A stretch of 64,000 nt of DNA from Bacilli bacterium (GCA_034176765.1 JAXFTN010000131.1:942-64941), one strand, 5' to 3'. Counted from the first letter of the stretch, positions 13,058 to 54,800 are shown. Made by a program: numbers and translations. The notes: generated from the letters alone by a model not told the origin.

Positions 13058-13058
13058 T

Positions 13059-13691: not shown

Positions 13692-13692
13692 T

Positions 13693-17112: not shown

Positions 17113-17213
17113 TGCATTATTTTTTTCGAATTTTTCGATGAATTATTTACTTTATGTACAAAATTTGAGAAAATAAGATGAACGAAGTAACTCACAATAA
17201 TAGGAGGATAAAA

Positions 17214-18329: not shown

Positions 18330-18340
18330 GGGGTATATGT

Positions 18341-19453: not shown

Positions 19454-19456
19454 TTT

Positions 19457-38236: not shown

Positions 38237-39036
38237 GAATTCAACCTATTTTAAACGTTTTAGTTACTGGTGCTGGTAATGGCATTGGTAAATCAGTTTG
38301 TGAATATTATTATAGTAAAGGCATAAATGTAATTGGTATAGATATTATCTTTAATGAAAAAGCACCATACCCTACATTTGTTGCAGATATTACTAACAAA
38401 GAAAGTTTACAAATTGTCAGTGACTATTTAAATAAAAATAAAATTATTTTAGATGCAATTGTAAATATTGCAGGTGTTTTTACTATCGGTTCTTTTATTG
38501 AACATGATTTTGATAAAATTAAAAAAGTAATGGATGTTAATGTTTTAGGAACGATGCTTGTTAATCAGATTATGTATAAACATCTTTCTAAAAAAGGAAG
38601 AATCATTGTTACAAGTAGTGAAGTAGCTCCTCTTGATCCAATGCCTTTTAATGGTATCTATAATGTTTCTAAGACTGCAATTGATAGTTATAGTCAATCA
38701 TTACGTCAAGAATTAAATTTATTAGGTCAAAAAGTAATAACTATTCGACCTGGAGCTGTAAAGACTAATTTAAGTGAAGGGTCATTAACTAAAACTTTGG
38801 AATTAACAAAAAATACTGTTCTTTACAAAGAACAGTCTAATAATTTTTATAAATTAGTTAAGAATTTTATGGGTACTCCAATTGCTCCTATAAAAATGGC
38901 TAAAACTTATTACAAGGCCTTAGTTAGTAAACATCCAAGATATATTTATAATAAGCATCGTAATCCAGGTTTAGTCTTATTAAGTATTTTACCAAAGAAA
39001 TGGCAATGTGCGATTGTTAAAGCATTAGTAAAATAA
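38233..39036 (+). CDS. SDR-family oxidoreductase
   Basis: VLVTGAGNGIGKS (TGxxxGxG) motif and the NISKTA catalytic Y/K region are present. Confidence 0.8.
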   Translation: MRIQPILNVLVTGAGNGIGKSVCEYYYSKGINVIGIDIIFNEKAPYPTFVADITNKESLQIVSDYLNKNKIILDAIVNIAGVFTIGSFIEHDFDKIKKVMDVNVLGTMLVNQIMYKHLSKKGRIIVTSSEVAPLDPMPFNGIYNVSKTAIDSYSQSLRQELNLLGQKVITIRPGAVKTNLSEGSLTKTLELTKNTVLYKEQSNNFYKLVKNFMGTPIAPIKMAKTYYKALVSKHPRYIYNKHRNPGLVLLSILPKKWQCAIVKALVK

Positions 39037-39041
39037 TAATT

Positions 39042-39866
39042 TTATTCTTTAGTCATTTGATTACTTGAATCAATTTTCTTTTTTGATGCAATCTTTCTTC
39101 TAATAATTTCAATTACTAAGAATATTGCATAAGGTATGAAACACATAATAAAGAAACTTATTAGAAAAACAATATAGTAAACTGGAAATGGAACATATGG
39201 CTTAACTAATGTATCAATAATAGGAAAAGTTGCTGGAGTTAATGGATGAAGATAAAAGAAGTTAACAACTGTATCACTATTAACGCTATGAGCAATAAAA
39301 TTACATGTAACAGCTATTAAAGAGAAAACTATAAATATTATAAATGAAAATGGATAATACTTTAGGTTTTCTTTTTTTCCTGCTTCAAATGATACAAAAG
39401 TAAGAGAATTTATTCCTACAAGAAGCACATGGAAAATCGCACTATAAAATGATAGAAAAACATAATCTGGTTTTAACATAGCTGTAGGATTGACAAAATA
39501 GGCAATAGAAGCTGTTAAACCAACAAATGAAAGATAACTAATAAAAGTCTTTTTAATTTTTTCATTTTTAATAAAATAAATTGGAATTAATAAATACATA
39601 GGAGTTGAGCAAAGTTGAAAAGGAATTAAAGTTAAATCTGCAACTCCAACGGCAAAAGAAAAGATAACTTTAACAACTTCTAGACCAATTAAATAAAAAC
39701 CAAATATAGTTAATAATAATTTCTTTTTCTTTTCATATTTTTCGTCTTGATAACGATATCCAAAAAATGTACTAACGGCAAAAGTAATGACAGCAATTAT
39801 TATCATTATAATATGCAATGTACCAAATTTTTCTGGTTTATTTGTCCACATAAATATCACTTCCAC
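39042..39866 (-). CDS. Hypothetical polytopic membrane protein (YwaF-like)
   Basis: 7-8 helices. No catalytic motifs. Confidence 0.4.
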   Translation of the reverse strand: MEVIFMWTNKPEKFGTLHIIMIIIAVITFAVSTFFGYRYQDEKYEKKKKLLLTIFGFYLIGLEVVKVIFSFAVGVADLTLIPFQLCSTPMYLLIPIYFIKNEKIKKTFISYLSFVGLTASIAYFVNPTAMLKPDYVFLSFYSAIFHVLLVGINSLTFVSFEAGKKENLKYYPFSFIIFIVFSLIAVTCNFIAHSVNSDTVVNFFYLHPLTPATFPIIDTLVKPYVPFPVYYIVFLISFFIMCFIPYAIFLVIEIIRRKIASKKKIDSSNQMTKE

Positions 39867-39969
39867 TTCCTAAATTTTAATGATTAAATTACATATATTT
39901 GTTAATTAAATTATGAAGAAATATTTTGTTTTAGTCAAATATTTTCTTAGCTTAATGTATTTTTGCATA

Positions 39970-40008
39970 TAAAAAAACATTGTTACAAATGAATGCAACA
40001 ATGTTTTT
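39970..40008. terminator. Bidirectional rho-independent terminator at the 3' end of the mrp operon
   Basis: Hairpin AACATTGTTGCATTCATTTGTAACAATGTT (minus-strand sense) followed by a T7 run. Confidence 0.65.
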
Positions 40009-40018
40009 AGAGTGAAAA

Positions 40019-42061
40019 TTATATTAATATAACAACAAAAGTTAGAGCTAAAACTAGAACGAATCCGAAACAAACCATTCCTAGAGCAAATGAGAATGTT
40101 GATGTTTCATCGTGGAAATAGTCATTAACAGTTAATGCTATACCATAATATTTTTCAGCATATTTATGTGGATTCTTTTTATTTGGTTTTATCTTATCAA
40201 TTAACATACCTATCTTATAACTTAATGGATATTTATTATAGTGATAAGTATGAGATCTTAATATTGTTTTTCTTAATAAATAAATTGATCCATCTATAAT
40301 TATAGAGAAAGATTTTAATATTAATAAACAAATTGTCATTACTATTCTAATAATAAAGATATAACCTTTTTCTAAATCCAAGAATGAAGGCCATAAATTT
40401 AGATATTCCTTGTTTTTAATTAATAATAAACGAACAATTACACCATAAATAAATGCACCGATTAATAGAGAAATTAATGCACCTTTAATGCTTTCCCATG
40501 AAAAGAAATGAATCGTGTGTTCGAGTGGTTCAACATTAAAGAATTCCATTGCTGCTCCAGATAAAGGAACATTGATTATATTTGGAACTACACCAAGAAT
40601 TGGAATAATAAGTGAAGAAATAATGAGAACAACTGTTGTAAGTGGGGAACAATAATTTTTCATGTTGTCAAATTGTAGTTGTTTTTCATCATCACTATTT
40701 TTTTCAATAAACAAGTTAACAAATAGTTTAGTCATATAAGCTATTGTTAATCCACCTGAGATTAAGAAAATCCATTCTACAATTTTAAAATAAACAAGTT
40801 GTCCACCAGTTAATTCATTAATATGAATATATTCAACGATGGATTCATGAATCATTGTTTTAGATACATATCCATTAAGACCTGGTATACCCATAATTCC
40901 TAAGGCACCAATTAAAAATACAATCATAAATAATGGTTTCTTACGACCAAAACCTTTGATATCATTAAGGTTTAATGTATGTAAGTTCATCGCTACTAAA
41001 CCAGCACTCATAAATAAAACTAATTTAATTGATGAGTGATTGATCATATGTAATAATGCACCTTGACCAGCAAGAGCACCTTCCTCTCCTAAAAGTGTCA
41101 TCATAGCAATACCTACTAATATAAAGCCTATTTGAGACATTGAAGAGCAAGCAAGTGTTCTTTTTAAATCAATTGAGAATAAAGCGAGTATTGCACCAAA
41201 GAACATTGTTATTACTGCAAAAACTAATAATGTTTGTCCCCAAGATGCATTAGCAAAGAAGATGTTTGATGTAATAACAATAATTCCATAAACACCAGTT
41301 TTTGTAAGAATACCTGAAAGTAATGCACTTGCAGGAGCAGGAGCTACTGGGTGAGCTTTAGGTAACCAAATATGAAGTGGATACATACCAGCCTTTGCTC
41401 CAAAACCTAATAACATCAAAATACCAGATGTAAAAATAAATGGTGTTACTCCGTTTAAAGTAATGTAATCTTTAATTCCTTCAAATGAATATGTTCCGGT
41501 TTTAAAATATAGCATAAACATACCCATTAATAAAATCATACCTGAAACGACTGCGACAGCTAGATAAGTACCACCAGCTTTCATTGTTTCTTCTTTTTCA
41601 TCATGAACAACTAAAGGATAAGATGCGAATGACATTAACTCAAAGAAAATAAATGTTGTAAATAAGTCATTGGAAAAGAAGACTCCAACAACACCAGATA
41701 AAGTTAATAAATAGAAGAAATAGTAACGATCTTTATTTATGTAATGACGCATATAGTCTTTTGAAAATGTAATCGTTGCAAGCCATAAAAAGATAGATAC
41801 AGTTGCATAAATAATTCTAAATGCATCAGCTTTAAAAGATAAAGACATTCCACAAAGCGAAGGAATAAGTAATTCTTTATTTCCATTTATAACAAATAAT
41901 ATAATCAAAATAATCATTGATATCATTTCAATTAAATTAATACTTATTGCGAAAATTTCTCTAAGTTTAGGGAATCTTTTTGAAATAAAGAATGAAATCG
42001 TTCCAAATACCATAGGGAAGAATATTAAGAATAAGATTAAAAAGATCATATTATAGAACAC
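40019..42061 (-). CDS. Mrp antiporter subunit A-like (NuoL/ND5-family large subunit with C-terminal extension)
   Basis: WLPKAHPVAPAPASALLSGIL antiporter-subunit signature. 680 aa, ~20 helices. Last gene of the cluster. Confidence 0.8.
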   Translation of the reverse strand: MFYNMIFLILFLIFFPMVFGTISFFISKRFPKLREIFAISINLIEMISMIILIILFVINGNKELLIPSLCGMSLSFKADAFRIIYATVSIFLWLATITFSKDYMRHYINKDRYYFFYLLTLSGVVGVFFSNDLFTTFIFFELMSFASYPLVVHDEKEETMKAGGTYLAVAVVSGMILLMGMFMLYFKTGTYSFEGIKDYITLNGVTPFIFTSGILMLLGFGAKAGMYPLHIWLPKAHPVAPAPASALLSGILTKTGVYGIIVITSNIFFANASWGQTLLVFAVITMFFGAILALFSIDLKRTLACSSMSQIGFILVGIAMMTLLGEEGALAGQGALLHMINHSSIKLVLFMSAGLVAMNLHTLNLNDIKGFGRKKPLFMIVFLIGALGIMGIPGLNGYVSKTMIHESIVEYIHINELTGGQLVYFKIVEWIFLISGGLTIAYMTKLFVNLFIEKNSDDEKQLQFDNMKNYCSPLTTVVLIISSLIIPILGVVPNIINVPLSGAAMEFFNVEPLEHTIHFFSWESIKGALISLLIGAFIYGVIVRLLLIKNKEYLNLWPSFLDLEKGYIFIIRIVMTICLLILKSFSIIIDGSIYLLRKTILRSHTYHYNKYPLSYKIGMLIDKIKPNKKNPHKYAEKYYGIALTVNDYFHDETSTFSFALGMVCFGFVLVLALTFVVILI

Positions 42062-43517
42062 CTCCTAAAAGTATAGAAGATATTAGTTCGACAAATGGTT
42101 GAGAGATAATACCTAAGATAATCGATAAGGCACTAAAAACAATAAATGTTGATAGATATAATTTATTAGGTTCTTGAGATTTATCATAAATTTCTTGATT
42201 TATTTCATTTGGTTTATACATAAATGCTCTAAAAGGAATATTTAATGTATATACAGCAGTAAGTAGTGCTGACACTAAAATACAACCTATACCTATATAA
42301 CTAAAAGCATTACCTAATTCAATACTTGCCATACCGATATACCATTTAGAAATAAAACCAGCAAATAGTGGGACTCCGATTAATGATAATGATGCAATTG
42401 TAAAGTTAATGAATGTAATTGGCATCTTTTTTCCAAGCCCATTAAGTTCATATACATAATGAGCATGAGAATTTTTAATGATAGCACCACAAGTAAAGAA
42501 TAAACAAATTTTAGCAAATGAATGGAATAACATATGTAATACAGCTGCTAATAATCCAGTCTTATTCATAAACGAAACTGCTAATAAAATATAAGATAAG
42601 TTTGATATAGTTGAGTAAGCAAGTCTTCTTTTGAAATGTTGCTCCTTTAATGCCATCATCGAACCATATAGAATTGTAATAGATGACATTATTATAGTAA
42701 CTACTTGTACCCATGAATTAGACATCAAATTATAATTGAAATTATAAAAAGTTGATCTCATAATTGCAAAGACACCAGCTTTAACAACTGCAACTGCATG
42801 GAGTAATGCAGTAGTAGGAGTAGGAGCAGCACCAGCCATTGGTAACCAGAAGCATAAAGGGAAGACAGCTGATTTTACACCAAATCCTAAGAAAGTTAAT
42901 AGATAAGCAACTAAGGATATAGTACTATTAGATTCAATCAAACCTCCAAAAGTAAACTCACATGATCCACTTAAATGTAAAAGAATAATCAATCCAACAA
43001 GAGCAATAGATGAACCTGTTAATGAAAAATATAAATAATAGCGTCCAGCCTTTCTAGCTTCAGGAGTATAAGTATGTACAATAAGTGGTAATGTAACGAT
43101 TGTTAATAATTCATAAAAGATAAATAAAGTAAATAAATTGCTTGCAAATGAAATACCAAGAACAACACCAAAAGTCATAACATAATAAGCATTATATTTT
43201 TCTTTTCGTTCTTCATCCTTCATATAAGCATAAGAATATAAAAGTGAAAATGGCCATAAAAGCGAAACCATACCAGCAAATATTTTACCTAAACCATCAA
43301 GCTTTATTCCTAGGTTTATTTTTTCAGATAAAATAATAATTTTTGAAGTTTCAGTATTAATAGTAAATAAGAATACAAAAGTAATTAGTGAAGTTAATAT
43401 AACGCTAACTAAAGAAATAATTTTATATATTTTTTCATTAGTAATATTAACTATTCGTAATATAATGCCGGTAATAATCGGTAATAATATAGGAATTAAT
43501 AAAAATAAGCTACTCAT
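42051..43517 (-). CDS. Mrp antiporter subunit D-like (NuoM/N family), paralog 3
   Basis: WLPMAGAAPTPTTALLHA signature. Start taken at the internal ATG preceded by AGAGG; the ORF track extends to 43580. Confidence 0.72.
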   Translation of the reverse strand: MSSLFLLIPILLPIITGIILRIVNITNEKIYKIISLVSVILTSLITFVFLFTINTETSKIIILSEKINLGIKLDGLGKIFAGMVSLLWPFSLLYSYAYMKDEERKEKYNAYYVMTFGVVLGISFASNLFTLFIFYELLTIVTLPLIVHTYTPEARKAGRYYLYFSLTGSSIALVGLIILLHLSGSCEFTFGGLIESNSTISLVAYLLTFLGFGVKSAVFPLCFWLPMAGAAPTPTTALLHAVAVVKAGVFAIMRSTFYNFNYNLMSNSWVQVVTIIMSSITILYGSMMALKEQHFKRRLAYSTISNLSYILLAVSFMNKTGLLAAVLHMLFHSFAKICLFFTCGAIIKNSHAHYVYELNGLGKKMPITFINFTIASLSLIGVPLFAGFISKWYIGMASIELGNAFSYIGIGCILVSALLTAVYTLNIPFRAFMYKPNEINQEIYDKSQEPNKLYLSTFIVFSALSIILGIISQPFVELISSILLGGVL

Positions 43518-43527
43518 AATAATACCT

Positions 43528-45003
43528 CTAGAATAAGAATCCTTGAACTGCAGAAATAATGTAATTTGAAAAAATACCAATTAATACTGCAGAAACAGTT
43601 AAAATAATCAAGACAGTAGACATCAATTTATTTTCTTTTACTTTTGAAAATTCTTGATTTTTATCTCCTGGGAAGAATGCTTTTATTGTAATAGGTAATA
43701 AGTAAAGGGCTGTAAAAACAGCTGAAGTTAATAAAACAATACAAGCGATAATACCAACTGCTGTTGATCCACTATTTAAAGCACCCATAGCTAGATACCA
43801 TTTTGAAGTGAATGGACCAGTAGGTGGAATACCAATTAATCCTAGTGAACATATTGTATAGCACCACATTGTGATTGGCATTTGTTTTCCAACACCTGTT
43901 AATTCATCAACATTATGTTTTTGTAAATTGTGGATCATAATACCAGCTACTAAGAATAAGCAAACTTTAATACAAGCATGAGAAGCAATGTGTATAAAAG
44001 AACCTGCTAGTGATTGTTCGTTTAATAAACTGATACCTAATAAAATATAAGATAATTGAGAAACAGAAGAGTAAGCTAAACGTTTCTTAAAATTATTTTG
44101 TAATAAAGCAAGACCAGAGCCTAATAAAATTGTGATTAAAATTAATGTAATCCAAGTATATTGCAACCATGTTCCTTTTATAAAGTCTGTACCTACTATA
44201 AAAAATAAAATACGAACGATAAATAAGACACCAGCTTTAGTAATGATACCAGAAAGAACGGCTGATGCAGGAGCTGGAGCAACAGGGTGAGCTGTTGGTA
44301 GCCATTCTTGTAATGGGAACATACCTGCTTTTGTACCAAAACCAATAAATGCAAGTAGTAATGAAACTAAAATCAATGTTTTGTGTGCGTTAGCTTCAGT
44401 TAAATCTAGTGATCCACCTAAAACAAATTCGCAACCATTTGTTGTATAAGCATATAAAACAAAGACAGCAAATAATCCTAAAAAGGCACCACCTATTGAA
44501 TAAATTAAATATTTAATAGCAGCTCTAATTGATTCTTTAGTTTTATCATAAAGAACTAGTGGCATTGAAAGAAGTGTTAGCATTTCAAATCCAAGATAAA
44601 GGGTTATTAAGTTACCTGAATAACATAATAATAAAAGTGTTGCTTCAGACATTAAGTAGAAAGAGAAGAATTTATTTGAGTTCTCATCGTGTTCAAAATA
44701 TCTAAAAGCATATAAGCTAACTAATAAGAATATAACTGAAATGATGATAGCAAAGAAATTTGAAACCCCATCATTTTTAAATAAAATCAACAAATTATCA
44801 GTTAATTTAAAAAGTTCTACTCTTTGTCCACTAAAAATAGTTAAAAGAATGACGCTTATTACTATTAAACTTGATAGTGAAGAAATCAAAATGTTAATTA
44901 ATTTTTTATTTTGTGTTTTTAAAAAGTGAACTACTATTCCTAATATTAATGGAACAAGTATAGAAATAAACATAAAAATAAACATATCTTCCCTCCTATG
45001 CAA
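43528..45003 (-). CDS. Mrp antiporter subunit D-like, paralog 2
   Basis: WLPTAHPVAPAPASAVLSGI signature. Length is 491 aa. Confidence 0.75.
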   Translation of the reverse strand: MHRREDMFIFMFISILVPLILGIVVHFLKTQNKKLINILISSLSSLIVISVILLTIFSGQRVELFKLTDNLLILFKNDGVSNFFAIIISVIFLLVSLYAFRYFEHDENSNKFFSFYLMSEATLLLLCYSGNLITLYLGFEMLTLLSMPLVLYDKTKESIRAAIKYLIYSIGGAFLGLFAVFVLYAYTTNGCEFVLGGSLDLTEANAHKTLILVSLLLAFIGFGTKAGMFPLQEWLPTAHPVAPAPASAVLSGIITKAGVLFIVRILFFIVGTDFIKGTWLQYTWITLILITILLGSGLALLQNNFKKRLAYSSVSQLSYILLGISLLNEQSLAGSFIHIASHACIKVCLFLVAGIMIHNLQKHNVDELTGVGKQMPITMWCYTICSLGLIGIPPTGPFTSKWYLAMGALNSGSTAVGIIACIVLLTSAVFTALYLLPITIKAFFPGDKNQEFSKVKENKLMSTVLIILTVSAVLIGIFSNYIISAVQGFLF

Positions 45004-46489
45004 ACATATCTAAACCTTTTTGTATTACTACAATAATATAAGGTAGAGAGCCAATAACTATATTAATTAATGAAAAACCAATAACACTCAATTTAAAAGC
45101 AAATGAGCTTTTTTCTTTAATGGTTTCATTAGTAGCAACTTCAAGAGGAGAGTAAATAGTAATAATTGTTCTTAAGAAATAAATTGTATTTAATAATGTA
45201 GAGATAACTAATGATGCAAGAGCAAGTGATACTTGTAAAGTTGATATTGTTGCGTCTAGAGCACCCATAATTAATAAACATTTAGTAGCAAATCCAGCAA
45301 AGAATGGGAAACCGACCATAGATAGAGAACCTATCGTATATCCAATTCCTGCGATAATATCTTTCTTTCCAGACCCCTTTAAAGATCTAAATCTTGCATC
45401 CCCATTCGATACGCTAATTAATCTATTACTAGAAACAAATAATAAAGGTTTAGTACATGCATGACATAAAATTTGTATTATTGCACCAACAATACCTGCA
45501 GGTCCTAAGCCAATACCCATATAGATATAACCAATTTGAGCTGCTGATGAAAAAGAAATCATACGATTTATTTTTCCTTGTCTTATAGCTGAAAGAGAAC
45601 CAAATATCATACCTAGAGCACCAACGATTAAATAAACACCAGTAAGTTTTAAAGAGTTAATAGTATCCCAACCGAATGTACGATAAATCATTTTAATTAG
45701 TAAAATAATGTAACCTTTTGAAATAACACCAGATACGATTGATGCAGAAGTTGTTGTAGATTCACCATATGCATCTGGCATCCAAAAGTAAAATGGGAAC
45801 ATACCACTTTTAATGCCTAATCCAACTGAAATTAATAAACATGAACAAATAATTGCTGGAGTATTTTTGTTATTAGTTACTAAAGTTGTTAATGCTTCTT
45901 TAATGTAACTCATAGATAAATAACCAGTTAAGTCATATAAGAAAATAATACCAAGTAAGAATAGACCAGAGCCGATCAAATTAAATATCATATATCTTAT
46001 TGCAGCTACTGTAGTATTGCCTTTTTCTTTAATCATAATTAGGCCAATACTTGCGAGTGTAGATATTTCTAAGAAGACATAGCCTGTAAAGACGTCGTTA
46101 GTATAAATTAATGCAATTAAAGCAACTAGTACTAAGTTTAATAAAACATACATAAAGTGTTCTTTATTTTCACTTATATCTTCTTTAATATCTTTTTGTC
46201 CTCCGAGTAATGATAATAAAATAATAAGAGGAAAAAATATTGCAAATATTGATTCTAGAACACCAAATCTAATTTCATTACAAAATGGAGCAGGGAAATG
46301 ACCCATTGGATATTCTATGCTTCCTTCTTTTAGGGTTAGCATTAGAACACATATTCCAAATGCAACAGAAATACTATCAACAATAATTGTAATAATTCGT
46401 GATGCTTTTCCTTTTAATATTGCACATAAAACTACAGCAACAAAAGCTAAAATGATTGTAAACAAGGGGAAATTTTTAAAGAATTCCAT
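44996..46489 (-). CDS. Mrp antiporter subunit D-like, paralog 1
   Basis: WMPDAYGESTTTSASIVSGV is a degenerate version of the same signature. Length is 497 aa. Confidence 0.72.
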   Translation of the reverse strand: MEFFKNFPLFTIILAFVAVVLCAILKGKASRIITIIVDSISVAFGICVLMLTLKEGSIEYPMGHFPAPFCNEIRFGVLESIFAIFFPLIILLSLLGGQKDIKEDISENKEHFMYVLLNLVLVALIALIYTNDVFTGYVFLEISTLASIGLIMIKEKGNTTVAAIRYMIFNLIGSGLFLLGIIFLYDLTGYLSMSYIKEALTTLVTNNKNTPAIICSCLLISVGLGIKSGMFPFYFWMPDAYGESTTTSASIVSGVISKGYIILLIKMIYRTFGWDTINSLKLTGVYLIVGALGMIFGSLSAIRQGKINRMISFSSAAQIGYIYMGIGLGPAGIVGAIIQILCHACTKPLLFVSSNRLISVSNGDARFRSLKGSGKKDIIAGIGYTIGSLSMVGFPFFAGFATKCLLIMGALDATISTLQVSLALASLVISTLLNTIYFLRTIITIYSPLEVATNETIKEKSSFAFKLSVIGFSLINIVIGSLPYIIVVIQKGLDMFA

Positions 46490-46491
46490 AT

Positions 46492-46872
46492 CTAGTCCTC
46501 CTTGTGTTTGTGTATTGCATGATACACTTCATCTAAATTAAGAGTGTGATATTTTGAATATAACCTTACTGTTAGTGCTAAAGATATAGCTGTAACAGAA
46601 ACAGAAACAACAATACCTGTTAAGACTAGACCAGCAGGAATAGGATTTACATAAGATGAAGGATCGGTACTACCATTATTTAAGATTGGTGGGACACGAT
46701 CACCTTGAATATATCCCATAGATGCAAGAAATAAGTATGTTCCTGTATCCATAATATTTAACCCAATAATTTTCTTTAATAAGTTACGATGGAATAAGAG
46801 TAGAGCAAACCCAATGCCAAATAATAAGATGGCAACTACTTCTACTAAATGATCAAGTAAAGCTTGTAGCAT
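46492..46872 (-). CDS. Mrp antiporter subunit C-like (NuoK-like)
   Basis: LLFGIGFALLLFHRNLLKKIIGLNIMDTGTYLFL motif. ATGA overlap with the upstream gene. Confidence 0.7.
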   Translation of the reverse strand: MLQALLDHLVEVVAILLFGIGFALLLFHRNLLKKIIGLNIMDTGTYLFLASMGYIQGDRVPPILNNGSTDPSSYVNPIPAGLVLTGIVVSVSVTAISLALTVRLYSKYHTLNLDEVYHAIHKHKED

Positions 46873-46873
46873 A

Positions 46874-47767
46874 TTAGATTTCTCCTTTCTTAAATAATGA
46901 ATAGAATCCAAACATTGTGCATGTAACAACTAATCCGACACAAACATTTAAAATAAAGATTATGCCTCCACTTAAGATAGCACCAGGTTCGCCTAATGGA
47001 ATTACTGAATGCATACCATTAGCACCTGTAAAGAATGAATATGTTTTACATCCACAATATGTTAATAAAGATAGTGAAGTAATAACTTTGAAAGATTTTT
47101 GCTTGAAGAATCTTTCCGAATTATTAAAGCCAAATGCAATTGAATAAAGAATTAATCCTGCACCCATGATAGCTCCGCCGGAGAAACCTCCTCCAGGAGA
47201 AATGGATCCATTTAATACTACATATGCACCGAATAATAAAATAATAGGAACAAGGATAGAACAAGTAATTTGTAAAATTGGATCTTGTACAATTTTAAAT
47301 TTTTCTTTTAATGTTGCATTGTCTTTAAAACCTTGTAATAAAATCATTACACAAGTAACAGCAGTAAAAAGAACAAAAGATTCACCAAGAGTATCAAATG
47401 CACGATAATCTAAAATCATACCTGTTACAAAGTTGGTTGCGCCTGTATCACCAATACCATCCTTAATATATTTATCAATTATTTCATTTAGAGTAGGATT
47501 ATTTAATTCATCTCCAAAGACTGGTAAGAATGTAACACAATATAATAAGGAACAAATAAATAATAATGATGCAACAATTGCTATAAAATAATAAATTCCA
47601 GATTCAAATTTATGAGATTTCTTTTTAATTGCAGCAGTTGCTTGTTTGTTAGGTTTTTTAGCTTTTATAGTATCATCATAATTAACAACTAAATCTTCAT
47701 CGTTTTCAATATTTGAAAGCAAATCTTGACTTTCACCTAAAAAGTTTTTATTTTTCATGAGATTCAC
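46874..47767 (-). CDS. Mrp antiporter subunit B-domain protein with hydrophilic N-terminal extension
   Basis: GMILDYRAFDTLGESFVLFTAV is the MnhB signature. Confidence 0.65.
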   Translation of the reverse strand: MNLMKNKNFLGESQDLLSNIENDEDLVVNYDDTIKAKKPNKQATAAIKKKSHKFESGIYYFIAIVASLLFICSLLYCVTFLPVFGDELNNPTLNEIIDKYIKDGIGDTGATNFVTGMILDYRAFDTLGESFVLFTAVTCVMILLQGFKDNATLKEKFKIVQDPILQITCSILVPIILLFGAYVVLNGSISPGGGFSGGAIMGAGLILYSIAFGFNNSERFFKQKSFKVITSLSLLTYCGCKTYSFFTGANGMHSVIPLGEPGAILSGGIIFILNVCVGLVVTCTMFGFYSLFKKGEI

Positions 47768-48080
47768 CTTCTTTTATTTCTACTTGAGATGATTCTTCAA
47801 GTACACTATTTTCATTGTGTTTATCATCGACTTTATTTAAGTTAGAATCAATTTGTTTAATCTTCTTTAAAGTTAAGAAAAATAAAACACTTGTTACACC
47901 TGCACCAACAGCAGCTTCCGTAATTGCTAAATCAGGTGCTTGTAATAAAACCCAAATAACAGACATGACTACTGAATATGAACTAAAGATTATAATAGAT
48001 GTTAATAAATTCTTACTTAATCCAGCAGCAATAGCACAGACAACTAAAAAAACTAATAAAATAATTTCAAATATTTCCAT
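47748..48080 (-). CDS. Small MnhB-N-terminal-like (DUF4040-type) membrane protein
   Basis: Three helices. Occupies the MbhD/E position of Mbh-type clusters. Confidence 0.5.
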   Translation of the reverse strand: MEIFEIILLVFLVVCAIAAGLSKNLLTSIIIFSSYSVVMSVIWVLLQAPDLAITEAAVGAGVTSVLFFLTLKKIKQIDSNLNKVDDKHNENSVLEESSQVEIKEGESHEK

Positions 48081-48442
48081 TAGTTGTCACCTTCTTCCTT
48101 ATCTTCTACTTTTTCACTAGAATCAACTTGCGTTTGATTAACTTCTTTTTTTACTTGATCGTCAGTTAAGACTTCAAGTTTAGAAATAAAGTGACTTGCT
48201 ACAGGACTTGTTAGCCATAAAAAGATAACAATAAAGAATAATTTTATAGATGTTGCATTAAATCCATTAGCAATAGCAATTCCTAAGATAATACAAAATA
48301 AACCCATCGTATCTAATAAAGCTGCTGAGTGCATTTTGTTTAAAACGAATTTAAATTTATAAATTCCAATAACTCCTATAATAAATAGGAAAAGGCCTAA
48401 AAGAATAAAGAAAGCAGAAAAACCAAAAGTTACCCAAGTCAT
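48080..48442 (-). CDS. Mrp antiporter subunit G-like
   Basis: VLNKMHSAALLDTMG matches the MnhG RxHAA region. Length is 120 aa. Confidence 0.7.
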   Translation of the reverse strand: MTWVTFGFSAFFILLGLFLFIIGVIGIYKFKFVLNKMHSAALLDTMGLFCIILGIAIANGFNATSIKLFFIVIFLWLTSPVASHFISKLEVLTDDQVKKEVNQTQVDSSEKVEDKEEGDN

Positions 48443-48795
48443 TATTTTTCATCCTCCTTTTCTTCTTTTTTATTATCTTCTTCAATTGTAGGAATAATAT
48501 TAGTTGCTTTATGTTCTTCGATATAGCGATTAATAAAGACATTACTTAAAACGACAACTGATAAGAAAGATATTAAAACATAAATAATACATACATCACT
48601 TAAGTATGATTGCTTTAAAAATACTGAAAGAATAGCAATAATTGAAGTAACAAAAGTACCAGTCATATTGATAGTAACAATACGATCAGTTACACGAGGG
48701 CCTATAATAGTTTTAATAAGAATAAATAATAGACCAATACCTAAAAGGCATAATGTTCCAATAATTAGATATTCAAAAGCTAGTTCTGGTGTCAT
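48442..48795 (-). CDS. Mrp antiporter subunit F-like
   Basis: Three helices, 117 aa, positioned between the E and G subunits. Confidence 0.6.
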   Translation of the reverse strand: MTPELAFEYLIIGTLCLLGIGLLFILIKTIIGPRVTDRIVTINMTGTFVTSIIAILSVFLKQSYLSDVCIIYVLISFLSVVVLSNVFINRYIEEHKATNIIPTIEEDNKKEEKEDEK

Positions 48796-49289
48796 TATTT
48801 TTTGCCCTCCATTCTTCTTAATAGTTTAACTAATGTACTATTTTCAATTCCTTCAAAGTATTCTTTTCTTAAACAATGAACAATAAAAACACCACCATTT
48901 TTCTTTGTTTTATCACAAGAAATAGTGATAGTTCCTGGAGTAAGAGTAATAGAATTTGCTAGTAATGAAATTAGTAATTCGTTTTCTAAATCAATGTGTA
49001 TTTTGATAATCTGTGGTTCAGGAGTTTGTTTTCTTTTTAATATTAAAGAGACAACTTTTAAATTTGAAACTATAACATTAATAAATAAAACAATTCCATA
49101 AGCAATAAATAAATGAATGTGCTTTATAAAAAAAATATCTGTTTTAAAGCTCCATTTTGTAAATTTAATCATAAACCAATATATTAATGCACTTAATAAA
49201 AGGCCAATGATAACAATTTGTAGAAATTTTGTATCAAATGCAAAATGAGCATTCAATAATAACCATATTAAAAAAATGATTATAAACAT
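48795..49289 (-). CDS. Mrp antiporter subunit E-like
   Basis: LANSITLTPGTITI is the MnhE signature. RBS AAGGTGGAG precedes the ATG at 49289. First gene of the minus-strand operon. Confidence 0.7.
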   Translation of the reverse strand: MFIIIFLIWLLLNAHFAFDTKFLQIVIIGLLLSALIYWFMIKFTKWSFKTDIFFIKHIHLFIAYGIVLFINVIVSNLKVVSLILKRKQTPEPQIIKIHIDLENELLISLLANSITLTPGTITISCDKTKKNGGVFIVHCLRKEYFEGIENSTLVKLLRRMEGKK

Positions 49290-49469
49290 TTCTCCACCTT
49301 CTTTCACCTTTAAAACTATACCACTATAAGATTTTTAAATCAATTATTACATAGTAATAATATAGTATTTATCATAAATATTTTTTTATTAATGAAATAT
49401 GTTTTTCTTAACAATAAAGTACAAAAAAAATAAAATTTGTTTTTTTTTATCAAAACTAGTCGTTATTAG

Positions 49470-49478
49470 TGCTATAAT
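49470..49478 (+). promoter_or_regulatory. Candidate extended -10 (TGcTATAAT) for the rnf operon
   Basis: TGCTATAAT lies 25 nt upstream of the rnfC RBS AAAGGAGAG. Confidence 0.4.
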
Positions 49479-49503
49479 ACTTTTGTTAAAGGAGAGATTT
49501 TAA

Positions 49504-50811
49504 ATGAGTTTATTTAGTTCTAGCATAGGTAGACATTTAAACGGCCATAAAGAATTATCAAAACATGCCGAAATAATTGATCTTCGTGCGAAAGCTGGAC
49601 AAAAAGTTTATTTCCCTACTATTTGTTCAAATAATACTCCACTTAATGTTTTAGTTAAACCTGGAGATAAAGTTAAAGCTGGACAAAAAATAGCAGAAAG
49701 AACTGATTTTTATGTTCCAATTTATGCATCTGTATCTGGCACTGTTTTAGATGAAGAAGTCCTATTTAGTACAAATGTCAATAAACCTATCAAACACATC
49801 GTTATTGAAAGCGATGGTACTCACAAACAAAATAGGAAACTAAAAACTGTTACTTTAGAAAGTACTCAAGAAGAAATTTTCAAGGCTATTAAAGAAGCAG
49901 GTTTAGTTGGTCTAGGGGGTGCTGGGTTCCCTACTTATGTAAAATATAATAACCCACAAAATATCCACACATTACTTGTTAACGGAGTAGAATGTGAACC
50001 ATTCTTAACAACTGACTATGTTCAAATGTCAAGAGAAGTTGAATATTTAATGAGTGGTTGTGAATTATTAATGAAAGCAAGTGGAGCTGAAAAAGCTATC
50101 ATTGCTATTAAAGTTCATAAAGAAGATGTTAAAAATGCGGTTAATAGTAAATTAGCAGAACATCCTAATATTAAATTAGTTGAAGTTCCTGATAAATACC
50201 CAATGGGTTGGGAAAGAACTTTAATTAGACAAATATTTAAGAAGACTTATAACAAATTACCTTCTGAAGTTGGTATTGTTATAAATAACGGTCAAACAGT
50301 TATAGAACTTGCAAAAGTATTATTAGAAGGTCATCCTATGACTGAAAGAATGGTAACTGTTTCAGGTGACGCAATTAAAGAACCACATAATGTTTTAATT
50401 AATATTGGTACTCAAGCTAAAGAATTAATTGAAGCATGTGGTGGTATCACAGAAGAAGACTGTAATTTAATTCCTGGTGGTCCAATGTGTTCAAAGGCTG
50501 TTAATAATGATGTATTCCCATTAAATATGCAAATGGGTGCACTTACTATATTAAAAGTAAGAACATTTGTCGAAGAACCATGCTTAAGATGTGGTGCTTG
50601 TACAGGTCATTGTCCAGCAGGTCTTCAACCAGTTGAAATTAGAAGTGCTTTAAAAGCAAAAGATTACGATAGATTATTAAAACTTGATGTCTTATCTTGT
50701 GTCGAATGTGGTATGTGTTCATATACATGTCCTTCTCGTATTGAACTTACAGATGCTGTTAAGAACGCAAAACCAGTTGTCAAATTCAAGATGGCACAAG
50801 CAAAGAAATAA
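49504..50811 (+). CDS. rnfC: Rnf complex subunit C (NADH-binding, 2x[4Fe-4S])
   Basis: GLGGAGFPT NADH-binding loop. Ferredoxin motifs CLRCGACTGHCP and CVECGMCSYTCP are present. Confidence 0.9.
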   Translation: MSLFSSSIGRHLNGHKELSKHAEIIDLRAKAGQKVYFPTICSNNTPLNVLVKPGDKVKAGQKIAERTDFYVPIYASVSGTVLDEEVLFSTNVNKPIKHIVIESDGTHKQNRKLKTVTLESTQEEIFKAIKEAGLVGLGGAGFPTYVKYNNPQNIHTLLVNGVECEPFLTTDYVQMSREVEYLMSGCELLMKASGAEKAIIAIKVHKEDVKNAVNSKLAEHPNIKLVEVPDKYPMGWERTLIRQIFKKTYNKLPSEVGIVINNGQTVIELAKVLLEGHPMTERMVTVSGDAIKEPHNVLINIGTQAKELIEACGGITEEDCNLIPGGPMCSKAVNNDVFPLNMQMGALTILKVRTFVEEPCLRCGACTGHCPAGLQPVEIRSALKAKDYDRLLKLDVLSCVECGMCSYTCPSRIELTDAVKNAKPVVKFKMAQAKK

Positions 50812-50823
50812 GGAGGTAAGAAA

Positions 50824-52434
50824 ATGGCTTTTAAGACAAATTCAGCTCCTTATCAAAGAGCTAAAAAATCAACTCTACAAATTATGATAGAGTTAGCAAT
50901 TGCACTTGCAATTGTTTGGATTGCTGCGATTGTTACAACATTTATTAAATTAGGTTCTCCATATGGTGTTAAATCTATTTTGTTAATGGTTGTATCATTA
51001 GCTACTACAGCAGTTTGTGATGTTTTAACAACATTATTTAGAAATTTTAGAGTTCTAAAAGGTAAAGAACTTGGAAAAAAGATACTTTATGATTTAGTTC
51101 ATAATTATTCTTGGATTACTGCAATGATTCTTACTTTAATTTGCCCTGTCTGGACAAGTTATTATGCAATCATTTGTGGTTCAATCTTTGCTACTTTAGT
51201 TGTTAAAAATTTATTTGGTGGTTTTGGATCAAACATTTTCAACCCAGCTGCTTTTGGTAGAATTTTTATTCAACTATGTTTCTCATTAGCAGTTCCTGCA
51301 GGAATTACTAATGGTGTTGTTTCTGGAGCTACATTAACAGGTGTTGTTAATTCAAGTCAACAATGGCTTGGTGCTTTAGAAATCGATGGCTTTGGAATTA
51401 AAGAAATCTTATTAGGTACTTATTTTGGTACAATGGGTGAAACATTTACTATTCTTCTTTTAGTTTTAGGTGTTGTCCTTGCTATTAGAGGAGATATTAA
51501 CTGGAGAGCTCCTGTATTCTATGTAGGTACTGTCGCTGTTACTTCAATAATAATTGCATTAGTATTAGGATTTGAAAATCCTTTATTATATGTTGTATAT
51601 CATCTAGGTTTAGGTGGATTAATGTTTGGTGCTGTATTTATGATTACAGACCCTGTCACAACTCCTACTGCACCTGTTGGTAATTGCTTTGTTGGAGTAT
51701 TTGCAGCATTAATGACTGTTTTATTAAGAATTGCTACAAATGGTCCTGAAGGTGTTGTTTACTCAATTGCACTTGTTAACTTAATTACTCCAGCTATTGA
51801 TAGAATCTGTGTTGGTAAAACATCTGCTCATAAAGGAGTTAAATATGGTGTAACATTTGGTACTCTAGCAGCTTCTATCTTATTGTGTGTAGGTTGTTCA
51901 TGGGCTTTAAACGGTGGTCGTGAAGTCAATGAAATTAATGGAATTTCACGTAAAGAATATGATGAATTAAAATCATATGTAAATTTTGAATTCATGGATG
52001 AAAAAGGTTATGAATTCATGAAATATGAAAAAACAATTGGCTCATATAGTAGTCTAACTTCTGTTGGCAATTGTTCATCTGCATATAGTATCATTGATGA
52101 AAATAATAATGTAGTTGCTGCTGTTTACTGTGTTCAAGTTAGTGGTATTTCAATTGATAATGGATATAATGTTTCTGAGAAAACTGGTGTTGCTTACGTT
52201 GCTATTTCAACAACAACTGATCAAATTATTGATATGTCACTAGTTAAAGTTCCATATGTTGGAGCATATTTAGATAAAGTTAATGGTGGAGTTAATGATT
52301 TTGATTATGCAAATAATAATATTTTAGATAAAGAACCAAATCAGATTATTACAGGTGCTACTTATTCAGCAATAGGTATTAAAAATCTTGCACAAGCTGC
52401 CGTTGATGTTTATCAAGGCGAATATAAAGCATAG
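50824..52434 (+). CDS. rnfD: Rnf complex subunit D fused to a C-terminal FMN-binding (RnfG/NqrC-like) domain
   Basis: NqrB/RnfD core with FMITDPVTTPTAPVG. A ~170-aa extension contains the flavinylation-type motif IITGATYSAIG. Confidence 0.8.
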   Translation: MAFKTNSAPYQRAKKSTLQIMIELAIALAIVWIAAIVTTFIKLGSPYGVKSILLMVVSLATTAVCDVLTTLFRNFRVLKGKELGKKILYDLVHNYSWITAMILTLICPVWTSYYAIICGSIFATLVVKNLFGGFGSNIFNPAAFGRIFIQLCFSLAVPAGITNGVVSGATLTGVVNSSQQWLGALEIDGFGIKEILLGTYFGTMGETFTILLLVLGVVLAIRGDINWRAPVFYVGTVAVTSIIIALVLGFENPLLYVVYHLGLGGLMFGAVFMITDPVTTPTAPVGNCFVGVFAALMTVLLRIATNGPEGVVYSIALVNLITPAIDRICVGKTSAHKGVKYGVTFGTLAASILLCVGCSWALNGGREVNEINGISRKEYDELKSYVNFEFMDEKGYEFMKYEKTIGSYSSLTSVGNCSSAYSIIDENNNVVAAVYCVQVSGISIDNGYNVSEKTGVAYVAISTTTDQIIDMSLVKVPYVGAYLDKVNGGVNDFDYANNNILDKEPNQIITGATYSAIGIKNLAQAAVDVYQGEYKA

Positions 52435-52446
52435 GAGGTAAGTACG

Positions 52447-53007
52447 ATGAATAAATTAGTTAAATTGCCATTATTCCTAGGCGCAGTCGGATGTATTTGT
52501 GGTGGCGTTCTTGCTGCTGTAAATTTTGTTACAGAACCAGTTATTGCTGCTAATGAAGAAAAGAAAGCAAATGCTGCTTTCTATGAACATTTTTCTAATT
52601 TTAGTAAGAAAAATGTTGTAACAGTAAAAGATGAGCTTGCTTCTGCAGGTATTACTCAAAAATTTTATTGTTTTGATGAATCATTAACATTTATTGGTAC
52701 TGTATATGAATGTTCAGTCGTTGGATATGCTGGTAAAAGTACACCAATCAAATTTACAGTTTCATTTGCTAATGGAGCTCCTAATCACTATGTTGAATTA
52801 AGTAACGGCGAATCTGCTGAAGGCAAAAAATTTATGGATTGGCTTAAAGAAGATGTCAATGGAAATCGTTTATCAAATCTAGAAGAAGGTAAAACAGTTT
52901 CAGGTTCATCTATTTCATATAAAGCAGTTGATGGTGCAGTAAAGGCATGTTCAGCTGACTACCTTGCGGAACTTGAACATGTTCCAACTTTTATAGAAAA
53001 TGAATAG
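52447..53007 (+). CDS. rnfG: Rnf complex subunit G (FMN-binding)
   Basis: N-terminal membrane anchor. FMN_bind-like motif KTVSGSSISYKAVDGAV near the C-terminus. Confidence 0.75.
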   Translation: MNKLVKLPLFLGAVGCICGGVLAAVNFVTEPVIAANEEKKANAAFYEHFSNFSKKNVVTVKDELASAGITQKFYCFDESLTFIGTVYECSVVGYAGKSTPIKFTVSFANGAPNHYVELSNGESAEGKKFMDWLKEDVNGNRLSNLEEGKTVSGSSISYKAVDGAVKACSADYLAELEHVPTFIENE

Positions 53008-53021
53008 GAGGGTAAATAGTT

Positions 53022-53681
53022 ATGAAAAAATTACAAACATTTTTAAATGGTTTATTATTTGAAAATCCTACTCTTGTTATTTTCTTAGGTATGTGCCCTG
53101 CTTTAGGAACAACAAATACTGTTGAAAATGCTACATATATGTCATTATGTGTATTATTTGTTTTACTTCTTTCAAATATTATTATTTCATTGATTAGAAA
53201 AATCGTTCCAAATGAAGTAAGAATTCCTGTTTACATTATTATCATTGCAACTCTTGTTACAATTGTTGATATGTTATTCCATGCATATTTACCAGATAAA
53301 GTTTATTCTTCATTAGGTTCATTTATATCATTGATTGTTGTTAACTGTATTATTTTAGGAAGAGCAGAATCATTTGCTTCTAAAAATAAAATCGGTGATT
53401 CAATTATCGATGCATTAGGTTACAGTGCTGGTTTTGCTGGAGCTATTATTATTGTAGCTTTCTTCAGAGAATTATTAGGCACAGGATGTTTATCATGGGG
53501 TAGCAGTTCTGTTGATCTATTCTCTGATTATAAAATTTCTTTATTTGCATCTAATGCTGGGGCATTTATTGCATTGGGTATCGTAGTAGGTATTTATTCA
53601 GCAATTATGAGTGCTATAAAAAATCATAAGGCAAAAAAAGCTGCATTAGCTAAAGAAGCTAATGTTGAAGCTACAAAGTAA
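53022..53681 (+). CDS. rnfE: Rnf complex subunit E
   Basis: ENPTLVIFLGMCPALGTTNTVENA matches the RnfE/NqrD signature. Confidence 0.9.
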   Translation: MKKLQTFLNGLLFENPTLVIFLGMCPALGTTNTVENATYMSLCVLFVLLLSNIIISLIRKIVPNEVRIPVYIIIIATLVTIVDMLFHAYLPDKVYSSLGSFISLIVVNCIILGRAESFASKNKIGDSIIDALGYSAGFAGAIIIVAFFRELLGTGCLSWGSSSVDLFSDYKISLFASNAGAFIALGIVVGIYSAIMSAIKNHKAKKAALAKEANVEATK

Positions 53682-53696
53682 GGAGGAATAAAAGAA

Positions 53697-54275
53697 ATGG
53701 ATTTATTTGCTATCGCATTTGCTGCTTTACTTGGCAGTAATATTATTCTTTCAAGATTTTTAGGTATTTGTCCTTTCTTAGGAGTTTCTAAAAAAACTTC
53801 TAGTGCTGTTGGCATGGGTTTAGCATTAATTGCTGTTGTTACTTTATCAGCTTTATTATGTTTTGCACTTGATAAACTACTTGTTTTATTAGGAATGGCA
53901 TCTTATCTAGAATTAGTTGTTTTCATTCTTGTAATTGCTTCATTCGTTCAATTATTAGAATTTTTCTTAAAGAGATTTGTTCCAAGTTTATATAAATCAC
54001 TAGGTGTTTATCTTCCTTTAATTACAACAAACTGTGTTGTTTTACAAGTATGTTTAGATCTTGTTTCAAGAGAATATAACTTATTACAAACTTTAGTTTA
54101 CGCAGTTAGTGTATCAGCAGGTTATATGCTAATCATTGTTCTTTTCTCTTTAATTAGAACTCGTTTAGATAATCAACCTAATATGCCTAAAGCATTTAAA
54201 GGAAATGCAATTGCCTTAATTACAGCTGGATTAATGGCTATGGCTTTCATTGCATTTAGTGGTTTTAGCTTCTAA
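53697..54275 (+). CDS. rnfA: Rnf complex subunit A
   Basis: ILSRFLGICPFLGVSKK matches the RnfA/NqrE signature. Confidence 0.9.
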   Translation: MDLFAIAFAALLGSNIILSRFLGICPFLGVSKKTSSAVGMGLALIAVVTLSALLCFALDKLLVLLGMASYLELVVFILVIASFVQLLEFFLKRFVPSLYKSLGVYLPLITTNCVVLQVCLDLVSREYNLLQTLVYAVSVSAGYMLIIVLFSLIRTRLDNQPNMPKAFKGNAIALITAGLMAMAFIAFSGFSF

Positions 54276-54493
54276 TGATATTCACTCAAGAAACTGGTAA
54301 TATATGGGTTCAAATAGGTATTTTACTTGTATGTATTGCATTATTTGTAGGTACTTATTTATTGAATAGACATACAAAAAAGCCAGATGGATGTGAAAAT
54401 GTTAGTGAGCATTGTACAGGTTGTACAATCTCTTCCTGTTCTCATCATCCAAATAATTCTAAAGAAGAAAAAGGAGAAGAAAAAAATGATTAA
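54275..54493 (+). CDS. Small single-pass membrane protein with Cys-rich tail (CxnCxxCxxxxCxHH)
   Basis: Translationally coupled between rnfA (ATG overlaps its stop) and rnfB (8-nt overlap). One helix, then CENVSEHCTGCTISSCSHH. Confidence 0.4.
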   Translation: MIFTQETGNIWVQIGILLVCIALFVGTYLLNRHTKKPDGCENVSEHCTGCTISSCSHHPNNSKEEKGEEKND

Positions 54494-54800
54494 AATTTTA
54501 TTAGCTATGGCTGTTTCTTTAGGAATAGCAGCTATATTAGGTTTTGGACTTGCACTTGCTGATAAATTCCTTAAAGTTGAAGAAGATCCACGTATTGAAA
54601 AAGTTACTTCAATGCTACCTGGTGCAAACTGTGGTGGTTGTGGCTTCCCTGGATGTTCTGGTTATGCATGTGCATTAGTTGAAAAGAAAGTTGATTCTTT
54701 AGCAGCTTGTAAAGTATCAAAACCAGAAGCAAAAGAACAAATTAAAGCTTATTTAAAAGAGACACCAGGACCTGATGGAACTACTCTTGATTTAAAATAA
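54486..54800 (+). CDS. rnfB: Truncated RnfB: N-terminal membrane anchor and Cys-cluster module only, no polyferredoxin domains
   Basis: RBS AAAGGAGAAG is present. LPGANCGGCGFPGCSGYACAL matches the RnfB N-terminal Fe-S module. The ORF stops after 104 aa with no CxxCxxCxxxCP ferredoxin motifs. An immediate terminator follows. Confidence 0.65.
   Translation: MIKILLAMAVSLGIAAILGFGLALADKFLKVEEDPRIEKVTSMLPGANCGGCGFPGCSGYACALVEKKVDSLAACKVSKPEAKEQIKAYLKETPGPDGTTLDLK

Follow-up and report, generated by a model that had tools for sequence, protein, structure and literature searches.

We examined a 64,000-nucleotide stretch of DNA from a Bacilli bacterium (GCA_034176765.1, JAXFTN010000131.1:942-64941; ~28% G+C), referred to below as the window, which carries a cluster of genes related to the Mrp cation/proton antiporters. 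Ten abutting open reading frames (ORFs) lie on the minus strand at 40019-49307; with start codons set from gene calls on L081, a near-identical metagenomic contig, the operon proper spans 40019-49289. All ten genes start with ATG and have a GGAGG-like site upstream and, since the spacing between neighbours is -11 to +10 nt, they form one translationally coupled operon. In transcription order the Pfam families are MNHE, MrpF_PhaF, PhaG_MnhG_YufB, MbhD, MbhE plus MnhB in a single protein, Oxidored_q2 (NuoK/MrpC type) and Proton_antipo_M four times over. NCBIfam returned the same families for the ten, and Pfam, NCBIfam and PDB matches together place all seven Mrp families (A N- and C-terminal parts, B, C, D, E, F and G) in this single operon. 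A first-pass annotation of the window, made from the sequence alone, had called a ten-gene Mrp-type cluster at 40019-49289; the coordinates are exact and every gene has a matching Pfam family. The motifs it cited for E (TLTPGT) and G (KMHSAAL) are both present in the translations. The genes are as follows.

48795-49289, minus strand: MrpE/MbhA-like subunit, 164 amino acids (aa); Pfam MNHE, 2.2e-28; the ATG at 49289 agrees with the L081 gene call.
48442-48795, minus strand: MrpF/MbhB-like subunit, 117 aa, with Asn43 at the site of an Asp described as invariant; Pfam MrpF_PhaF; top PDB match MbhB (6cfw_B).
48080-48442, minus strand: MrpG/MbhC-like subunit, 120 aa; Pfam PhaG_MnhG_YufB, 1.6e-21.
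47748-48080, minus strand: MbhD/MbsD-like subunit, 110 aa; Pfam MbhD, 2.1e-22; top PDB match MbsD (6u8y_D).
46874-47758, minus strand: MbhE+MnhB fusion, 294 aa, MbsE equivalent; Pfam MbhE and MnhB; PDB matches MbsE (6u8y_E), then MbhF and MbhE.
46492-46872, minus strand: MrpC/MbhG/NuoK-like subunit, 126 aa; Pfam Oxidored_q2; top PDB match MbsG, 84.8 bits.
44996-46489, minus strand: D1, 497 aa, MbsH/MbhH-like, adjoining the small-subunit module; Pfam Proton_antipo_M; top PDB matches MbsH and MbhH.
43528-44985, minus strand: D2, 485 aa, an extra D3-type paralogue absent from three-subunit relatives; Pfam Proton_antipo_M and tree.
42051-43517, minus strand: D3, 488 aa, with a NuoL/MrpA-type His on transmembrane helix (TM) 8; Pfam Proton_antipo_M and tree.
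40019-42049, minus strand: L, 676 aa, the distal subunit, with a 14-TM core, TM15, a long amphipathic lateral-helix-like stretch and TM16; Pfam Proton_antipo_M and AlphaFold2 model.

The ten-gene architecture is no novelty of the window but a fixed family trait. By scanning one genome per species with an alignment of the MbhE+MnhB protein as the query, we found a relative in at least 576 species, and the best 80 of these loci were annotated by BLAST against the window proteins. Every locus whose contig spans the cluster (66/66) has the identical order E-F-G-MbhD-MbhE/MnhB-C-D1-D2-D3-L, and in these complete loci the best match of each large subunit is its positional counterpart. A further 13 loci are collinear up to the contig end, and one ends in an ambiguous 112-aa fragment. 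The hosts are chiefly gut Lachnospiraceae and Oscillospiraceae, together with Bacilli metagenome-assembled genomes (MAGs), and cultured hosts include Hungatella hathewayi, Enterocloster aldenensis, Schaedlerella arabinosiphila and Fusibacillus kribbianus. Among the matches listed, the closest relatives of the window cluster come from animal-gut metagenomes and uncultured Bacilli MAGs. An exact-sequence look-up of D1 returned no record, and in a literature search no description of the ten-gene cluster was found for gut Firmicutes or haloarchaea.

For the small subunits, as for D1, the closest solved structures among the PDB matches are the Mrp modules of the Pyrococcus membrane-bound hydrogenase (MBH) and of MBS. 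The MbhD-like gene, which the first-pass annotation had labelled B′, is by its matches not an MrpB paralogue but the equivalent of the first part of the MrpA C-terminal domain. The protein that follows joins the rest of that domain (the MbhE half) to MrpB, the same fusion as in MbsE of MBS. As in MBH and MBS, the MbhD-like protein and this MbhE half together account for the MrpA C-terminal domain. The motif DYRAFDTLGE, previously assigned to MnhB, is present but lies within the MbhE half, outside the MnhB domain.

The sites that line the proposed cation path, taken from Mrp and MBH structures (PMC7419157, PMC9568556), are at least 95% conserved at E55 of the MbhD-like protein, E129 and F195 of the fusion, MrpC D61, MrpF D37, MrpG H38/P80 and MrpE P124/H144. 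Pro124, within TLTPGT, and His144 of MrpE were scored in 72 loci, and in MrpG residues D44 and H84 are conserved across the family alongside H38 and P80. Glu55 of the MbhD-like subunit aligns with MbhD Glu69 and is invariant, as are Glu129 (in DTLGE) and Phe195 (in PGGGF; B. pseudofirmus MrpB Phe41) of the fusion. MrpC Asp61, which aligns with MbhG Asp37, is invariant in 81/81 sequences, and in MrpF both D37 (A. flavithermus Asp29) and R38 are invariant.

Phylogenetic placement of the large subunits, a check named in the first-pass annotation, relied on a neighbour-joining tree of 457 columns with 200 bootstraps. As references it contained E. coli NuoL/M/N and HyfB/D/F, two canonical MrpA/MrpD pairs, MbhH, MbsH, MbsH′ and two structure-derived MrpD sequences; related clusters of Peptoclostridium, Haloarcula and Sinorhizobium pSymA were also included. 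The four subunits form four separate orthologous clades (D1 99-100%, D2 93%, D3 91%, L 92-99%). D3 clusters with subunit 2 of Peptoclostridium, subunit 2 of Haloarcula and an MrpD-like protein of pSymA; D2 and D3 together group with these three at 90%, and L forms a clade with Peptoclostridium subunit 3 (99%). The canonical MrpA (91%), MrpA+NuoL+HyfD (86%) and MrpD (92%) clades exclude all four large subunits, which thus lie outside the group 1/2 MrpA and MrpD clades, and E. coli NuoL/M/N fall in other clades. The first PDB match of D2, D3 and L is again MbhH or MbsH, followed by NuoL/MrpA for D3 and by MrpD, HycC and NuoM for L. On the strength of the tree and the top PDB matches, we rejected a simple rearrangement of group 1 Mrp, the phylogenetic outcome that the first-pass annotation had named as refuting its reading.

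The earlier description of three MrpD paralogues, or a triplication, is imprecise, and D-D-D-A is shorthand for the architecture. Pairwise identity among the four large proteins is only 23-35%, and by this measure D1, D2, D3 and L are old paralogues. A recent triplication of mrpD was rejected on this identity and on the separate orthologous clades that the four occupy across species. The motif WLPxAHPVAPAPASA, put forward as typical of D/A-type subunits, is present, but in its exact form solely in D2 and L.

To assess the proton channels, we mapped the channel residues onto E. coli NuoL/M/N. D1, D2, D3 and L each carry the TM5 Glu, the TM7 Lys, a TM8 Lys, the TM11 His-x3-Lys and the TM12 Lys, and D3 additionally carries the NuoL/MrpA-type TM8 His. 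In D1 (78 sequences) the invariant positions are E141, K227, K258, H343, K347 and K403; in D2 (72 sequences) E140, K225, K256, H342, K346 and K401; in D3 (71 sequences) E157, K236, H261, H349, H353, K357 and K412; and in L (67 sequences) E141, K223, K254, H342, K346 and K401. With two exceptions, channel positions are invariant across the 67-78 orthologues per subunit; these are the first TM11 His, which may be His, Gln or Tyr, and the TM8 Lys of D3 (Lys in 61, Asn in 10). This invariance, at a median identity of ~44%, is strong evidence that all four channels are under selection.

We modelled the distal subunit L with AlphaFold2 from 43 homologues (mean pLDDT 87, pTM 0.84). In the model a 14-helix core is followed by TM15 (522-547), and then by predicted amphipathic helices at 563-599, 613-624 and 633-654, that is, 71 helical residues in a 92-residue stretch, before a very hydrophobic final helix at 658-679 (TM16). 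Foldseek ranks MrpA (7qru_A, TMq 0.73) and NuoL (8e9g_L, 0.73) ahead of the extension-less D/M/N types (0.60-0.65), and on this ranking L has a predicted MrpA-N/NuoL architecture, yet it is not placed as an MrpA orthologue. The first-pass description of the last gene as encoding a long MrpA-like protein is imprecise: the protein is of the N-terminal type only, with a C-terminal extension, and lies outside the MrpA clade. The lateral helix of complex I is of about the same length as the helical stretch of L, which could plausibly run along the three neighbouring subunits. The length of the C-terminal part does not correlate cleanly with the number of large subunits, being 242-431 residues in four-subunit clusters versus 254 in the three-subunit Peptoclostridium cluster. 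In L081, which comes from another sample, a frame change and an insertion of ~100 nt interrupt the L gene between residues 536 and 538, so that no gene is called there; the contig is either misassembled at this point or carries a natural pseudogene.

The gene order raises the question of whether the cluster encodes the membrane arm of a redox-driven pump, its catalytic module (hydrogenase-like, Rnf or another ferredoxin oxidoreductase) being encoded elsewhere. Both the order and the nearest relatives in sequence point to the MBS/MBH Mrp modules, and the NCBI name for the MbhE-containing protein is that of a hydrogenase subunit. However, across the whole 64-kb window Pfam and NCBIfam detected neither a hydrogenase gene nor a Nuo catalytic gene. 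We also clustered the flanking ORFs of the 80 loci and searched those clusters that recurred with Pfam: neither the window nor these recurring flank clusters contains an MbhM/NuoH-like anchor or MbhJ/K/L/N or NuoB/C/D/I-like genes, and the Pfam-annotated related contigs carry no redox subunits. Furthermore, the redox module of MBH and MBS docks on the MbhH/MbsH′ face that D2-D3-L would fill here (PMC7419157, PMC8165549). We consider a redox-driven arm highly improbable. A redox module nearby was rejected on the flank clustering together with the Pfam/NCBIfam survey of the rest of the window, in agreement with the first-pass annotation, which had reported no redox module and had named contiguous catalytic genes as the finding that would speak against its reading.

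The flanks themselves are variable. No neighbour is conserved across the 80 loci; the commonest, an ABC transporter, is found in 11, and other recurrent flank genes include a sigma factor, AraC-type regulators, a carboxypeptidase and similar genes. Since flanking genes are not conserved, the ten genes are a self-contained unit, mobile in context and without a linked redox module.

Among characterised systems, the cluster compares most directly with the stand-alone Mrp of Pyrococcus furiosus (PF1147-53, mrpEFGBB′CD), a group 3 Mrp for which genetics has shown a role in pH homeostasis with Na+ as the coupling ion (PMC8415708). One definition of group 3 is that mrpA is missing and mrpD present, 'sometimes with multiple copies' (Haja 2021, PMC8415708); another rests on irregular gene order (Ito 2017, PMC5703873). 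As judged by gene content, the cluster falls within this definition: the order is irregular, a full-length mrpA is missing and there are one or more mrpD-like genes. The first seven genes have the same order as in P. furiosus, neither system has a full-length mrpA or a redox module, and in both the MrpA C-terminal domain is encoded by separate small genes. The identification of E-F-G-...-C-D as an Mbh/Mbx-type order was sound, and the stand-alone Mrp of P. furiosus is ordered in this way too (PMC8415708). Unlike the window cluster, the P. furiosus system is archaeal and has a single antiporter-like subunit rather than four, including a distal one with a lateral-helix-type extension; the window cluster also fuses MbhE to MnhB and has Asn for Asp in MrpF.

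The Mrp modules of MBS (6U8Y) and MBH (6CFW) share the gene order and supply the top matches for D1, the MbhD-like protein, the MbhE+MnhB fusion, C and F. They differ in possessing an anchor and catalytic module (MbsM/J/K/L/N or MbhI-N), and the place of the single MbsH′ of MBS is taken in the window by three more antiporter-like subunits. Group 1/2 Mrp complexes (B. pseudofirmus 7QRU, A. flavithermus 6Z16, Dietzia 7D3U) share the subunit families and most key residues, and L fits MrpA best; however, their order is ABCDEFG as opposed to EFG...CD, they have two rather than four proton-channel subunits, their MrpF has Asp instead of Asn, their MrpA is a single protein where the window has three genes (L, MbhD-like and the MbhE part), and their MrpA and MrpD clades exclude the large subunits. 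As in the membrane arm of complex I (NuoL/M/N/K/J), at least three antiporter-like subunits with Lys/Glu chains would stand in a row, the distal one bearing a long lateral helix, and NuoK-like and NuoJ-like elements are present; unlike complex I, the cluster has no NuoH, NuoA or Q-module and does have a Na+-type E/F/G/B module, which is missing from complex I. The cluster lacks what defines group 1/2 Mrp, MBH/MBS and complex I.

Closer relatives carry three large subunits. The plasmid cluster of Peptoclostridium acidaminophilum (L086) has E-F-G-MbhD-MbhE-MnhB-C followed by orthologues of D1, D3 and L, and shares the MrpF Asn, but it has no D2, and MbhE and MnhB are separate genes. An analogous nine-gene plasmid cluster of Haloarcula marina (L090), also with three large subunits and the MrpF Asn, likewise lacks D2 and fuses MbhD with MbhE instead. 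Compared to these three-subunit relatives, the cluster is set apart by the extra D2 and the MbhE-MnhB fusion. Additional antiporter-like genes are found elsewhere too: a Nitrospira genome has two extra NuoM/L-like genes after mrpD (PMC7784846). Sinorhizobium meliloti pSymA (L087, 8981-20815) carries a complex I-type operon with nuoJ, nuoK, an MrpD-like gene whose product groups with window D3, a small gene, a 586-aa 'Na+/H+ antiporter D', nuoM and nuoN. The pSymA 586-aa protein and Haloarcula subunit 3 have Asn in place of the TM7 Lys.

From gene content, operon structure, family-wide collinearity, residue conservation and the absence of a linked redox module, we put at roughly 60% the probability that the cluster encodes a stand-alone group 3 Mrp-type (CPA3) cation/proton antiporter, assembled as one membrane complex of two modules. 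Because all four large subunits keep full sets of proton-channel residues, the best reading is that of a free-standing four-channel cation/proton antiporter, as the first-pass annotation had suggested. As to category, it stays an Mrp-type antiporter: the cluster is a four-channel form of the known group 3 Mrp, widespread but uncharacterised.

In such a complex, E, F, G, the MbhD-like subunit, the MbhE+MnhB fusion and C would form the module for translocation of Na+ (or K+/Li+) and for coupling, as they do in Mrp, MBH and MBS. The proton module would be a row in which, as we infer the order in the membrane, D1 lies beside the small subunits and is followed by D2, D3 and, at the far end, L, whose amphipathic C-terminal helix and last TM probably clamp the row. 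Driven by the proton-motive force, protons would enter by as many as four Lys/Glu channels, and their flow would be electrostatically coupled to extrusion of the cation through the small-subunit module. For the two-channel Mrp an electrogenic model of 2 H+/Na+ has been put forward (PMC9568556). With four channels, exchange may be strongly electrogenic, moving more H+ per cation than the ~2:1 of a two-channel Mrp. The physiological role may be to hold cytoplasmic Na+ low, or to convert Na+ and H+ gradients into one another, in fermenting gut anaerobes, whose membrane potential is low, and high electrogenicity would suit a small proton-motive force in the Na+-rich gut.

Several observations weigh against this four-channel antiporter. 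The NCBIfam matches of the ten proteins are all far under the curated cut-offs, so that the ten do not count as equivalogs of named proteins, and, by the tree, the large subunits are not orthologues of characterised MrpA or MrpD. Stoichiometry is not readable from sequence. The C-terminal part of the L model has a pLDDT of 44-82, which makes the span of the lateral helix uncertain, and the literature search returned no experimental test of any family member. Finally, residue 43 of MrpF is Asn in the window and in 77/77 family members, so that the cation entry route or the ion itself may differ.

This last point bears on whether the complex transports another substrate or works in another direction, as a K+/H+, Ca2+/H+ or proton-only system, or as a Na+-driven H+ extruder for acid stress of the kind proposed for P. 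furiosus Mrp. The Asn is also invariant in the Peptoclostridium and Haloarcula multi-D clusters, while position 43 is Asp in every characterised Mrp (group 1/2 included), MBH and MBS, and Mrp homologues with K+ or Ca2+ specificity exist (PMC5703873). The second Asp of MrpF (A. flavithermus Asp35, B. pseudofirmus Asp38) has been termed invariably conserved, and a Leu mutant inactivates the Anoxybacillus Mrp (PMC7419157). However, conservation extends to the other acidic and His/Pro residues along the proposed Na+ path, and since the Asp-to-Asn change at this MrpF site is mild in B. subtilis (PMC7419157), Asn43 need not abolish transport, but it marks the clade. The reverse direction would be thermodynamically unfavourable if all four channels turn over, as several H+ would have to leave for each Na+ that enters. 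Another substrate or direction is on these grounds unlikely.

The operon is transcribed divergently from a neighbour which we place outside the complex.

49504-54800, plus strand: rnfCDGEAB operon; Pfam/NCBIfam.

It is followed by a 337-aa gene without a family match and then by apbE (region to 57174). The first-pass annotation had proposed, more speculatively, that the antiporter pairs functionally with this Rnf complex. A version of this idea is that the antiporter is the ion-circuit partner of Rnf in the Bacilli lineage, co-regulated with it and converting its Na+ (or H+) gradient, with no physical docking; this would be a physiological role atop the antiporter mechanism rather than a separate mechanism. 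The divergent neighbour is real: the rnfC-mrpE arrangement is kept in the window and in three Bacilli loci (L001, L091 and L093), even though the Mrp proteins of these are only 54-61% identical to those of the window and the opposite flank differs in L091 and L093. A circuit of Rnf and Mrp has also been proposed for Methanosarcina acetivorans (Jasso-Chavez 2013, as cited in PMC5703873). However, no Rnf is found near the cluster in an Erysipelotrichaceae MAG (L092) or within 10 kb in the other related loci examined, mostly Clostridia, and adjacency in a few related genomes could be inherited synteny. Alignment of the mrp-rnf intergenic region (49290-49503) with those of L001, L091 and L093 revealed TG-extended -10-like elements at conserved positions, TGCTATAAT before rnfC and TGGTATAGT before mrpE, with nothing else conserved; there is no shared operator or convincing Rex-like box in the four, and Rfam gave no riboswitch in the window's own intergenic region. 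An Rnf partnership is possible but doubtful. The pairing is weak and, with adjacency confined to four Bacilli loci, lineage-specific; it permits a physiological connection there but does not define the system. The Rnf operon is itself atypical: RnfD has 536 aa, with a C-terminal extension of ~200 aa (a weak FMN_bind match in a homologue), the RnfG candidate has a weak N-terminal match only, and RnfB, at 137 aa, consists of a membrane helix and an Fe-S domain without the 4Fe-4S ferredoxin domains.

The ion-pumping arms of complex I, MBH and MBS are presumed to descend from Mrp antiporters, and how distant proton channels are coupled to each other and to the cation site is still debated. On the boldest reading, the complex might be a redox-independent, complex-I-like arm in which four channels drive one cation site through a modified entry (the MrpF Asn) at an H+/cation ratio far above that of characterised Mrp, and which might serve as the main Na+/H+ converter alongside Rnf and ATP synthase in fermenting gut anaerobes, a living example of the multi-channel Mrp stage that has been proposed to precede acquisition of the Q-module. 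This reading is speculative, and we think it unlikely. If the cluster does encode a stand-alone four-channel Mrp, it would allow redox-free tests of long-range coupling, of the effect of channel number on stoichiometry and of the role of the lateral helix. Such experiments are practical, as the family is present in cultured gut bacteria (Hungatella, Enterocloster, Schaedlerella), and they may bear on how abundant gut Firmicutes handle Na+/H+ circuits.

Rfam gave no match, and no riboswitch, over 38800-50000 at E up to 1, nor did it find a Na+/Li+ riboswitch in eight related loci that have long leaders before mrpE. The promoter and terminator scan was uninformative in this AT-rich DNA, with match counts equal to those of shuffled sequence, and it left one weak candidate.

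49315-49343, minus strand: candidate operon promoter (TTGATT, 17 nt, TG-extended TATAGT); consensus scan, with match counts equal to shuffled sequence.

On the other side, 167 nt downstream of the operon, lies a gene for a TMEM164-family membrane protein (39042-39851, same strand), followed by a short-chain dehydrogenase. The TMEM164 gene is also found in L081, but since bacA takes its place in L091 and L093, it probably does not belong to the system. Elsewhere the window carries housekeeping genes, glycogen genes and a Wadjet system. The Wadjet-type defence system, at 11630-17073, comprises JetA, a short JetB-sized gene and a 1126-aa SMC-like JetC, and Wadjet genes are also found a few kb from the mrp cluster in L093. 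The glycogen genes, at 17178-20893 and 60742-62250, encode two glucose-1-phosphate adenylyltransferase-like proteins, glycogen synthase and 4-alpha-glucanotransferase.

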